Origin: Candidatus Gastranaerophilales bacterium
GTDB taxonomy: Bacteria; Cyanobacteriota; Vampirovibrionia; Gastranaerophilales; Gastranaerophilaceae
Reading direction: 5' to 3'
Length of the DNA stretch: 64,000 nt
Assembly (NCBI GenBank): GCA_944325575.1
Contig: CALVAR010000009.1
Span: 7,761 to 71,760 of the forward strand
Shown here: positions 8,628-17,364 of the stretch, piece after piece
How the letters are laid out: every line of letters begins with the position of its first letter
Position numbering within the stretch: position 1 is the first letter of the stretch
Translations under genes and position numbers: made by a program
The notes under the pieces: model-generated
The model's database searches: none
The model's input: the letters and a program-made list of their open reading frames with translations, nothing else
What the model was told of the DNA's origin: nothing

Positions 8628-9037
8628 ATTGATAATATTTATTATGTAAAAATGAATATTTTGCATTCTAGAGCAGATATTTCATTTTTTCGTTCCAAGA
8701 ACTCTAAAAAATGATTAATTATCATTTTTTAGAGACTCTGCCGAATAAAAGCAACTAAATGTTGCTTTTATGAGAGGTGCTAAGTCAGATACGAAGTATC
8801 TGCGTGCCGTATAACATTGGCGGGTAGGATTTTAAGTCACTCTAAAATAAAATATCTGCTCTCTCGTTTTTTACTTAGGGAGGCATAAGGTGTTTGCTTC
8901 GGAGTGACTACGGCGCTGTCGGTTGGGCATACTTGCCCAACTCAAAAAATGTCATTCTGGTGAATTAAATATGCTTTGCTGCAAAAATATTGCTGTGTTC
9001 AGAATCTTACAAACTTGATGTGTTATCAAAAAGCCGG
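8628..9037 (-). mobile_element. Copy A of the hairpin-rich TIR element (about 410 bp, truncated at the gyrB-proximal end), inverted relative to copy B
   Basis: Reverse-complement alignment to 16955-17364. Positions 8672-8900 match the reverse complement of 17092-17320 with no mismatch (229 nt, checked by eye block by block). Flanks are about 85-90 percent identical. The terminal ATTGATAATATTTATTATGTAAAAATG is present; the last hairpin and second TIR are missing. Confidence 0.8.
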
Positions 9038-9145
9038 ATTAATATAAAAAAACTATTCTTTCTTTACAAAATAGCTCAATCTGCTTGTTTGTAGTACAAT
9101 ATTATTAAAGATAGAATTTTAGACTTAATTGGGGAAATATAAAAT

Positions 9146-11587
9146 ATGGCAGCAGAAACACATTATGATGCGAGTAATATCAGAGTTTTAGAGGGGTTGG
9201 AAGCCGTCAGAATGAGACCCGGTATGTATATCGGTTCTACATCACAAAGGGGCTTGCACCATTGTATATATGAAATTGTGGATAACTCTATAGACGAAGC
9301 ACTTGCAGGATATTGTACACAGATTACCGTTACAATAAATACTGATGAGAGTGTTACCGTTGAGGACAACGGACGTGGTATTCCTGTTGATATAAAACCG
9401 GATTCGGGAAAATCCGCTCTTGAAATTGTTCATACAGTACTGCATGCCGGAGGTAAATTCGGGGACGGTGGTTACAAAGTATCAGGCGGTCTTCACGGTG
9501 TAGGTGCATCTGTTGTAAACGCATTATCAGAAAAATATGTTGTTGAAGTTTCAAGAGATGGCTATTTATGGCGTCAGGAATATTTAAGAGGTGAGCCGAC
9601 TACTCCTGTTGAAAAAGTAAAAGAAACGGATAAAACAGGTACAAGAACAACTTTCTGGCCGGATCCGGAGATTTTTACTGAAACAACACAGATTGACAGA
9701 GATGTTATTGCAAACCGTCTGAGAGAAATGGCTTTCTTAAATAAAGGCCTAAAAATCAGATATATAGATGCAAAAACAGGAGAAGAACAGGATTTCCACT
9801 TTGAAGGCGGAATCGGAAGCTACGTAGAATTCTTAAATAAAAATAAAACTGTTCTTTTCGAACAACCGATATACATAGACAAAGCTGTTGATAATATGCA
9901 GGTTGAAATTGCAATGCAGTATACAGATGCTTATAACGAATCTGTTTTGAGCTTTGCAAATAATATTAATACCCATGGCGGCGGTACTCACCTTACCGGC
10001 TTCAGAAACGGTATTACCCGTGTATTGAACGACTATGCAAGAAAAAATAAACTTTTAAAAGATTCTGATGCAAACCTCTCCGGTGATGACGTAAGAGAAG
10101 GTTTGACAGCTATTGTTTCCGTTAAGCTGCCAAATCCGGAGTTTGAAGGTCAGACAAAAGATAAACTCGGAAGCTCGGAAGCTACTGCGGCAGTACAAGA
10201 TACAATCAGAGATAAATTGCAGGAATGGCTTGAATTCAACCCAAAATATGCAAAGATTATTATTGAAAAGACACTGCAGGCACAAAGAGCAAGAGAAGCA
10301 GCAAGAAAAGCAAGAGAACTTACAAGAAGAAAATCTGCGCTGGAAACATCCACACTTCCAGGCAAACTTGCCGATTGTTCTAACAGAGAACCTGAAAAAT
10401 GCGAACTTTATATTGTAGAGGGTGATTCTGCAGGCGGTTCAGCCAAACAGGGCAGAAACAGAATGTTTCAGGCTATTTTGCCGTTAAGAGGTAAAATTCT
10501 TAATGTTGAACGTGCCAGACTTGATAAAATGTATGCCAACAACGAAATTAAATCCATGGTTCAGGCTCTTGGCATAAACATAAGCAAAAACGAAGATGAT
10601 GTTGATATTGAAAAACTGAGATATCACAAAATTATCATTATGACAGATGCTGATGTTGACGGTGCACACATCAGAACATTGCTTTTGACATTCTTCTTCA
10701 GATATGCAAAACCATTGTTGGATCAGGGACATGTATACATTGCACAGCCGCCTTTGTATAAAATTACTATAGGCAAAAATGCAGAGTATCTCTATGATGA
10801 CAGAGCATTAGACAAGATGTTGAGAGAAAGAGGCATCAAGGATTTAACACTTTACAACAAAGATAAGTCAAAAAGTGCGACAGGAACCGAACTTGTAGAG
10901 CTTCTGGCAAATATGTCTACGTTCTACCATTCTTTCAACAATCCTCTTATCAACGCTATTCCGTCTGTTGTGATGAGAGCATTAATTCGTTCCAACATTG
11001 AACCTGAGGATTTTGATTCTCAAGAAGCAATGCAAAAACACTGCGCATATATTAATCATTATCTTCAAGACCACGCCGAAAATTACGGTATTGAAGAGGC
11101 TAAAAACTACAGCGTGGAAATTAAATTTAATACGGAAACACAAAAGTACAATCTGAATCTGCATCTTGAAAGAGAGACAGAACAGGTGCTTTTGACAGCT
11201 GTATTAGTTAAATCAAATGAATTTCAGCGTGTAAAAAATGCATACCCTGCAATCAGAAGCTATCTGATAGAAGAAGAAAAAGTGCTTGTGCTTGATACAG
11301 GTGCAGAAGAACTTCAGTTAACATCGTTTGCCGAATTACAAAGAGTTGTCGAAGAAAGGGGCAAAAAAGGCTTGACGCTGCAAAGGTTCAAAGGTCTTGG
11401 TGAAATGATGCCGCAGCAGCTGTGGGAAACAACAATGGACCCTGCGACAAGAACGCTTCTTAAGGTAAATGTAGAAGATGCAATGCTTTGCGATCAGCTC
11501 TTTGACGTGTTAATGGGAGATAAAGTAGAACCAAGAAGAGACTTTATTGAAACAAACGCTGTATTTGCACAAAATATAGATACGTAA
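9146..11587 (+). CDS. gyrB: DNA gyrase subunit B (long form with ~165-aa insertion in the Toprim/tail region)
   Basis: Shows [38 protein letters not shown], the GHKL ATPase motifs, Toprim [19 protein letters not shown] and [12 protein letters not shown], and C-terminal QRFKGLGEM. At 813 aa it resembles the E. coli-type long GyrB. Confidence 0.97.
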
Positions 11588-11607
11588 TTTTATGATTCTA
11601 TAACAAC

Positions 11608-11643
11608 AAAAGAGCTGAAAACAAAAGTTTTCAGCTCTTTTTA
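11608..11643. terminator. Bidirectional rho-independent terminator between convergent gyrB and hisD
   Basis: AGAGCTGAAAAC-AAAA-GTTTTCAGCTCT gives a perfect 12-bp stem. It is flanked by an A-run upstream and a T-run downstream. Confidence 0.7.
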
Positions 11644-16843: not shown

Positions 16844-16858
16844 CCTAACAAGAATAAT

Positions 16859-16890
16859 AAGCCCCCTGATAAAACTATCAGGGGGCTTAT
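16859..16890 (+). terminator. Terminator-like hairpin after the 15536-16843 gene
   Basis: GCCCCCTGAT-AAAACT-ATCAGGGGGC, a perfect GC-rich 10-bp stem. The U-tract is weak (TTATATA). Confidence 0.55.
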
Positions 16891-16894
16891 ATAC

Positions 16895-17364
16895 TGATAA
16901 TATTTATTATGTAAAAAATGTCATCCTGAGGAGCAAAGCGAGCTCAGGATCTTACCGGCTTTGGATTTGTGTATCGGCCTGGTAAGATTCTGAACATAGC
17001 AATATTTTTGCAGCAAAGCACATTTAATGCTTCAGAATGACATTTGTTGAGTTGGGCAGGTATGCCCAACCGACAGCGCCTTAGTTACTCAGAAGCAAAC
17101 ACCTTATGCCTCCCTAAGTAAAAAACGAGAGAGCAGATATTTTATTTTAGAGTGACTTAAAATCCTACCCGCCAATGTTATACGGCACGCAGATACTTCG
17201 TATCTGACTTAGCACCTCTCATAAAAGCAACATTTAGTTGCTTTTATTCGGCAGAGTCTCTAAAAAATGATAATTAATCATTTTTTAGAGTTCTTGGAAC
17301 GAAAAAATGAAATATCTGCTATCGAATGCGAAATATTCATTTTTTCATAATAAATATTATCAAT
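16895..17364 (+). mobile_element. Copy B: full-length ~470-bp TIR-bounded, hairpin-packed non-coding element (MITE-like)
   Basis: Left end TGATAATATTTATTATGTAAAAAATG; reverse complement of the right end TTGATAATATTTATTATGAAAAAATG. Internal inverted repeats: ATCCTGAG/CTCAGGAT, ATCTTACC/GGTAAGAT, ATTCTGAA/TTCAGAAT, the REP GTTGGGCA-GGTA-TGCCCAAC (17051-17070), CAGATAC/GTATCTG, AAAGCAAC/GTTGCTTT, the 14-bp CTCTAAAAAATGAT/ATCATTTTTTAGAG, and AGCAGATATTT/AAATATCTGCT. No ORF of 60 aa or more lies inside. Confidence 0.85.

Follow-up and report, generated by a model that had tools for sequence, protein, structure and literature searches.

The gyrB Locus and Its Inverted Repeats

The window, a stretch of 64,000 nt, derives from the metagenome-assembled genome (MAG) of a gut bacterium of the Gastranaerophilales (Melainabacteria), a non-photosynthetic cyanobacterial sister group, and it carries a segment with gyrB, hisD, rnpA, rpmH and proC that is bracketed by two copies, A and B, of a non-coding repeat element. 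Coordinates are those of the window, which lies on contig C9 of the MAG (G000); searches of this genome covered its 2.02 Mb in 38 contigs, and positions elsewhere in it are given with the contig number. The segment is found unbroken in a contig of an independent assembly (L121, corresponding to window 8905-17052).

A preliminary description of this DNA, made from the letters alone, held that the two copies lie in opposite orientation, share a perfect core within substituted flanks, and enclose 7.9 kb of housekeeping genes, all of which was confirmed. The inverted arms recovered by a repeat search (8627-9010 and 16982-17365) are 384 nt each, 96% complementary and 7,971 nt apart, and a base-by-base check found 8672-8900 to be the exact reverse complement of 17092-17320 (229/229). 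All 14 mismatches between the arms fall outside this 229-nt core, 4 of them in 8627-8671 and 10 in 8901-9010. A mismatch-free stretch of 229 positions or more would arise with a probability of about 3 × 10−5 if the 14 mismatches were distributed at random over the 384 positions, and the clustering of the mismatches outside the core is therefore real. The gene content of the segment was verified by Pfam matches (Table 1). The limits first proposed for the two copies (8628-9037 and 16955-17364) required revision, as the alignment of A and B stops past 9010/16982 and B in reality extends from 16889 to 17368 as a complete element, the terminal inverted repeats (TIRs) of which match at 93% over 29 nt in the repeat search. 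The list of open reading frames (ORFs) contains none of 50 amino acids (aa) or more inside A or B.

A Mosaic Repeat Family in the Genus

A and B do not stand alone. A 426-nt query around copy A yields 89 matches in the MAG, most of them partial, and the longer copies align as a mosaic of three separable modules: the TIR, a hairpin motif, and a module of the repetitive extragenic palindromic (REP) type. The TIR (TATTGATAATATTTATTATGTAAAAA, ~26-29 nt) has about 36 matches in the MAG, where it bounds at least 10 units of 330-850 nt. It is found in 26 of the 28 genomes of the genus, in pairs 130-860 nt apart; a reversed control pattern gives essentially no pairs in these 28 genomes. In most copies, T(A/G)TA stands before the TIR ends, which fits a TA/TATA duplication but is inseparable from the TIR itself in DNA of 33% GC.

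The REP-type module, present in about 40 copies in the MAG, some of which form tandem arrays, opens with the palindrome GTTGGGCATACCTGCCCAAC, and the REP hairpin is preceded by GTAG in several copies. The same palindrome, GTTGGGCATACCTGCCCAAC, stands upstream, and as a doublet downstream, of a decayed and frameshifted Y1_Tnp ORF at the start of the window (C9:7745-8016), which resembles a REP-associated tyrosine transposase (RAYT). The family thus shows the features of two classes of repeats. As in REP/RAYT systems, a palindromic REP hairpin flanks a RAYT gene and is dispersed intergenically; and as in MITEs (miniature inverted-repeat transposable elements), TIRs are present at both ends of B, and the elements are small, non-coding, multicopy, and polymorphic in their insertion between related genomes. 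A and B are best described as members of a MITE-like family of mosaic build that occurs throughout the genus and combines a structured hairpin with a REP/RAYT-type module.

Two further observations concern the surroundings of family members. Just upstream of the window (G000:C9:6890-7300), a tRNA gene has part of its own 3' end repeated behind it, and CCTCGTCGGTCCCGCCAT occurs twice at this locus, upstream of the decayed RAYT; the duplicated tRNA end may be an integration scar. On another contig (G000:C16:26828-26986 and C16:27119-27745), an ORF of 186 aa, which has an HNH-type match that is weak, is situated directly upstream of a TIR-bounded family member of 645 nt.

Identity of the Core at Three Loci

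The perfect core within diverged flanks had been taken as a sign of recent gene conversion between A and B. A bounded, non-random tract does support recent exchange or spread, but the restriction to A and B did not stand: a third full copy, at C19:24165-24393, is 100% identical to the 229-nt core. Exact runs extend over 239 nt between A and the C19 copy and over 238 nt between B and the C19 copy, which continues with B to the left and with A to the right. Two partial copies are likewise 100% identical over their length, one at a contig end (C19:1-74) and one a deletion variant (C1:60764-60869). In a conversion tract private to A and B, identity would be limited to these two copies; the C19 copy has the whole tract, and the core is therefore not specific to A and B.

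Comparison with related strains and species reveals that the elements at these sites are layered. In a conspecific contig with an identical GyrB protein (L122, ERZ16268171), the REP module is present at site A and is 99% identical to that of the window, and 43 unrelated nt stand in place of window 8619-8921, the part that contains the TIR and core. In L171 (VOFD01002447.1), a contig that covers both repeats and belongs to a strain of ~96% identity, site A has a full TIR-core-TIR unit, about 30 nt from a REP module of the window type. Two congeners (L032, L034) have only 93 nt from o129, a 129-aa ORF, to gyrB. In the sister species G026, the terminator of the 435-aa ORF is directly adjoined by a TIR whose position agrees to the nucleotide with that in B, with a different cargo that lacks the core. 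Flanking genes of G026 differ from those of the window by 10-18% at the DNA level, as against 100% identity of the core at three loci, indicating that the core is recent. The identical core thus looks like the youngest layer of a mosaic, which would have recently spread or been homogenised among copies.

Table 1. Genes, repeat copies and modules at the gyrB locus, with related features elsewhere in the MAG (contig number given; all other positions refer to the window).
Feature	Position	Strand	Description
Copy A	8627-9037	+	left TIR 8627-8652, core 8672-8900, then REP-type module; no right TIR
REP part of copy A	8922-8941	+	REP hairpin; more hairpins up to 9037
Core of A	8672-8900	+	229 nt; reverse complement of 17092-17320, equal to G000:C19:24165-24393
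Copy B	16889-17368	-	complete 480-nt element; 29-nt TIRs 16889-16917 and 17340-17368
Inner parts of copy B	17051-17320	-	REP hairpin 17051-17070, core 17092-17320
Core of B	17092-17320	-	229 nt
Hairpin motif, long form	8669-8863
Hairpin motif, short form, examples in G000	C4:28884-28989, C13:152-257, C25:5060-5165, C10:55894-56000
Third family member in window, partial	236-470	+	REP doublet, REP-type module, right TIR 436-470; adjoins decayed RAYT gene
TIR-bounded family member, 645 nt	C16:27119-27745
Bracketed segment	9038-16888		gyrB(+), hisD(-), rnpA(-), rpmH(-), proC(+), 290-aa ORF(-), 435-aa ORF(+)
gyrB	9146-11587	+	Pfam match
gyrB terminator / hisD 3' end junction	11588-11657		synteny breakpoint relative to all congeners examined; no repeat
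hisD	11658-12899	-	Pfam match
rnpA	12896-13258	-	Pfam match
rpmH	13348-13500	-	Pfam match
proC	13560-14417	+	Pfam match
290-aa ORF	14414-15286	-	no Pfam match
435-aa ORF	15536-16843	+	no Pfam match

Within the bracketed segment, the 290-aa ORF (14414-15286) is situated between proC and the 435-aa ORF and has no counterpart there in G026, G019 and G006, in which the distance from proC to the 435-aa ORF is about 100 nt. This ORF looks like a species-specific insertion.

Orientation of the Segment

An inverted pair of this length was proposed to be a substrate for RecA-mediated inversion of the segment between the copies. The homology is indeed long enough and recA is present in the genome, but an inverted isomer was not found in the contigs that span the locus. 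In five congeners (L031, L032, L034, L035, L036), the genes for a histidine kinase (HK) and a GNAT protein, o129, and gyrB(+) follow each other in the order of the window. The same HK-GNAT-o129-gyrB order is present in L122, where it runs on into hisD(-); as the core is missing at A in this strain, it has no long inverted pair. The contig L171 reads HK-GNAT-o129-[A]-gyrB ... 435-aa ORF-[B], again in the orientation of the window. No inverted isomer of the segment thus occurs among the assembled contigs L122, L171 and those of the five congeners, and no contig was found that joins the left half of A to a right half of the B type. Two contigs from other samples (L116, L117) cross the core from o129 into a right half of the C19/C33 type, and these joins may be chimeras or real.

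The GC skew at third codon positions (GC3 skew) points the same way. The MAG shows a replication-type skew, and on the + strand its value is −0.12 ± 0.04 in the left flank, +0.035 ± 0.037 in the segment and +0.106 ± 0.025 in the right flank. The skew of the segment is nearer to that of the right flank than to the value of about −0.1 expected after a flip, and there is therefore no sign of a recent flip. The expectations that relatives would display both orientations and that the skew of the segment would be discordant with its neighbours were not borne out, as L122, L171 and the five congeners show the orientation of the window only and the segment agrees with its right neighbour. Like an invertible segment, this one has inverted repeats at both borders; in the contigs of the strains compared, it does not occur in both orientations. 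To judge by gene order and skew, the segment is in its ancestral orientation relative to the left flank, with no evidence for inversion.

These results bear directly on the idea that a recent gene conversion specific to A and B made the core identical, and that the pair flips the segment by means of RecA so that both orientations coexist in the population. The 384-nt inverted homology with its 229-nt perfect block and the presence of recA would allow this, a crossover inside the core would spare promoters, terminators and all genes, and related copies mark real rearrangements in G026 and L171. Nevertheless, the third copy has the same 229 nt, all junction-spanning sequences have one orientation, L116 and L117 run from o129 into a C19/C33-type rather than a B-type right half, and the GC3 skew is not discordant, rendering this idea unlikely.

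Reliability of the Assembly at the Core

Perfect identity in a short-read metagenome could also be an assembly effect, in which the collapse of a repeat with at least three copies in a de Bruijn graph yields the identity, and possibly the pairing of the half-elements as well. The assembly ERZ28614069, which has 100% identical contigs and apparently derives from the sample of the MAG (run ERR4096331 also contains identical sequence), is interrupted precisely at the core, with one contig that ends at 8724, one that spans 8905-17052 and one that starts at 17167, indicating that the joins across the core in this MAG depend on how the assembler resolved the repeat. Many of the MAG's contigs terminate within a family member, and L116 and L117 join the left half of A to the right half of another copy, both consistent with such an effect. 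The A-side join is, however, independently supported by L122 and L171, and the latter, an independent contig that spans the locus, has both copies at the same two sites. Furthermore, the same assembler retained closely spaced variants that distinguish A and B right next to the core, which is at odds with bubble-popping inside the core, and the core of A recurs unchanged in the assemblies of other samples (L116, L118). The retained variants next to the core and the recurrence of the A core both argue against a consensus artefact, and an assembly effect is a rather improbable source of the identity.

Rearrangements at Element Sites

Family members are found at positions where gene order differs between strains and species. 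Past B, L171 does not continue into the ornithine/diaminopimelate (DAP) decarboxylase (ODC) gene, but into the reverse of the left flank of the MAG's own C19 copy, the arrangement that crossing-over of B with the C19 copy would produce. In this contig (L171 1-1350), the site-B element breaks off at the second of its hairpins, after which the reversed C19 left flank begins. In G026, an inversion relative to gyrB affects the block from hisD to the 435-aa ORF, whose terminator has kept the attached TIR, and the left-flank block, C9:8244-14364 in the MAG, is also reversed relative to gyrB (L125, G026:C31:2200-22100). A simple inversion between the MAG and G026 was considered and does not fit, as both blocks flanking gyrB are reversed and two of the junctions are without an element. 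The gyrB of G026 retains its own promoter and terminator, and the hisD end of the reversed block adjoins genes that are absent from the MAG.

Upstream of the decarboxylase gene, the neighbour differs from one to the next of G026, G006/G018 and G019, and downstream of gyrB five congeners have a block that sits on contig C14 in the MAG. A conspecific contig with an identical GyrB (L123 1-63, ERZ28614464) diverges left of window 9060 into the end of an unrelated coding region. This divergence marks one more breakpoint between strains, immediately inside site A. Of the three copies with the core, two are positioned at breakpoints of synteny. On the strength of these comparisons the region is held to be a rearrangement hot spot. 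As breakpoints in strains and in the sister species are located at element sites, we infer that the repeat family plausibly drives rearrangement.

The orientation of the segment had been thought to matter because gyrB and rnpA-rpmH usually lie near the replication origin. This premise finds no support in the present data: dnaA is located on contig C18 and not on the contig of the window, the window contains no cluster of DnaA boxes, with a single perfect box inside gyrB, and the neighbours of gyrB and of rnpA-rpmH differ in almost every relative, the gene order being scrambled across the genus. An origin near the segment was rejected on the first two of these grounds. The GC3 skew does change sign near 8-9 kb of the window, from −0.12 (1-9000) to +0.11 (17400-37000) across the segment; this could mark an origin or a mere rearrangement junction, and a similar change is present on C18. 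The skew of C18, the contig with dnaA, goes from negative to positive, and that of C1 goes from positive to negative near 130 kb, as in a terminus.

The Hairpin Motif

The core contains a hairpin motif that also occurs elsewhere in the genus. In its short form, the motif measures ~90 nt and consists of a closing stem of 20 bp, the sequence of which varies by copy, an asymmetric and invariant internal loop (TTCGTTCCGA on the 5' side and AAGTCACTC on the 3' side), and, at the apex, an exchangeable hairpin. Among nine short-form copies, compensatory changes are found at 17 of the 31 base pairs and 92.5% of cells are paired, far exceeding shuffled and slid controls. A covariance model built from these nine copies detects the motif in 13 of the 28 genomes of the genus, with 1-24 copies each. 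The 229-nt core comprises a long form of the motif with a multi-hairpin insert of 115-150 nt, then a T-run, and finally one half of another motif copy in the opposite orientation. Its closing helix is long, with 8669-8688 pairing with 8844-8863 around the multi-hairpin interior, and the fold of the core has a minimum free energy of −79.3 kcal/mol (z −5.8). The half-hairpin at 8877-8912 equals the reverse-strand half of another copy of the motif.

Comparison with described RNAs gave no counterpart. Neither the long nor the short form of the motif has a match at or near the gathering score in Rfam 15, and no known ribozyme or riboswitch was found at E ≤ 1 in the Rfam scans. The core superficially resembles a fused repeat/anti-repeat followed by a 'GGCTAAGTC' nexus, as in a guide RNA. 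This idea was dropped because a domain search found no TnpB-type domain in the MAG, a Cas9 model gave only a weak, 59-residue HNH-like match in the same genome, and Rfam, including HEARO, gave no match. A role of A and B as promoters or terminators was likewise rejected, as consensus scans yielded nothing above shuffled background, the only terminator-like match being that of the 435-aa ORF.

It is very improbable that purifying selection on every position of a functional structured RNA or protein-recognised DNA hairpin, without recent copying, explains the core: the strong, non-random fold (z −5.8), the covariation of the closing helix across family members, and the invariant internal-loop sequences would be consistent with it, but other members vary freely in their stems and apical inserts, so that selection does not require this exact sequence, purifying selection rarely keeps 229 consecutive positions, loops included, at 100% with flanks that are 9% different, and the core is absent from site A in the conspecific strain L122. 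A different possibility, which we regard as doubtful, is that the core is the long form of an undescribed structured RNA or protein-recognised hairpin that is carried on TIR elements in Gastranaerophilales and is kept identical among its dispersed copies by ongoing exchange, with these copies driving strain-level rearrangements, including those around gyrB. Such an RNA or hairpin would have the long covarying stem, the invariant loop (UUCGUUCCGA / AAGUCACUC) and the exchangeable apical domain. With its invariant internal loop and covarying stem, the hairpin motif is perhaps the sole feature of this system worth separate study.

A Probable Recent Copying of the Core Around an Ancestral Segment

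Taken as a whole, the account that we consider probable is that of a mosaic, MITE-like family, whose core underwent recent copying among three or more loci, around a segment that is ancestral in orientation. A and B belong to a set of roughly 20 TIR-bounded copies, members of a non-coding, mosaic family that is common in the genus and the elements of which are built from separable modules, namely the TIR, the hairpin motif with the core as its long form, and the REP-type hairpin module. The core would constitute the youngest layer, recently copied among A, B and the C19 copy beside older, diverged REP modules. This copying, we infer, could proceed by homologous exchange through the shared modules nearby or by one module taking the place of another. 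A spread of the core over multiple loci, rather than a private event between A and B, would then leave a perfect core inside diverged flanks. The A/B pair is a plausible substrate for RecA-mediated inversion, although inversion between A and B was not seen.

Several points weigh against this account. Conversion and module replacement are indistinguishable here, the donor is not identifiable, and the AT-rich DNA makes target-site duplications ambiguous. No transposase with these TIRs was encountered, as neither the MAG nor the genus matches listed contain TIRs at a transposase-size spacing; many family copies sit at contig ends, and an autonomous partner could be unassembled. The join of the two halves of B, the 435-aa ORF side and the ODC side, across the core rests on one assembly. 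Only three independent sequences test the orientation of the segment, which is known from assembled contigs, and a minority inverted isomer would be compatible with them. Finally, L171 contains a great many frameshifts, in gyrB and hisD as well as in further genes, probably reflecting an error-prone long-read assembly, and is informative about structure and not about base-level identity.

Relation to Known Repeat Systems

REP and REPIN sequences, with their RAYT transposases and mosaic clusters of the bacterial interspersed mosaic element (BIME) type, are known from enterobacteria and pseudomonads (Bertels and Rainey 2011, PMC3116915; Di Nocera et al. 2013, PMC3733652). As in these systems, the REP hairpin described here is short, GC-rich, palindromic and intergenic, occurs in about 40 copies, some of them in tandem, is preceded by GTAG in several of them, and flanks a Y1_Tnp gene. 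Unlike REPINs, which have no TIRs, the REP module here is one part of a larger unit with TIRs of ~26-29 nt, and the RAYT beside this REP family has decayed in the window.

The family also resembles modular bacterial MITEs, such as the Correia/NEMIS elements of Neisseria and the BOX and RUP elements of Streptococcus pneumoniae. Like these, its members are small, non-coding and TIR-bounded, occur in dozens of intergenic copies next to gene ends, contain stable hairpins, combine their modules variously, and vary in presence between strains. In contrast to these elements, to which it has no sequence relation, the family here was found without a cognate transposase, and for a plain MITE the asymmetric, conserved internal loop with covarying stems is unusual. 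Inverted copies of insertion sequences (IS), rrn operons or prophages give rise to chromosomal inversions by homologous recombination. Here too, inverted repeats of a few hundred bp flank a segment, recA is present and related copies sit at breakpoints, but the homology is much shorter than in IS or rrn inversions, and inversion of this particular segment was not observed. The system thus combines features of REP/RAYT repeats with those of modular MITEs and belongs to known kinds.

The inverted pair around essential genes is, in this light, a by-product of an abundant mobile repeat family rather than a dedicated switch. Where at least three copies have identical cores, short-read MAGs of this group become ambiguous, and contig joins there are not to be trusted. 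A layered repeat system, consisting of a TIR element, a hairpin motif and a REP/RAYT module, thus sits at synteny breakpoints in uncultured, non-photosynthetic relatives of the cyanobacteria, and it may explain the strikingly scrambled gene order of the genus.

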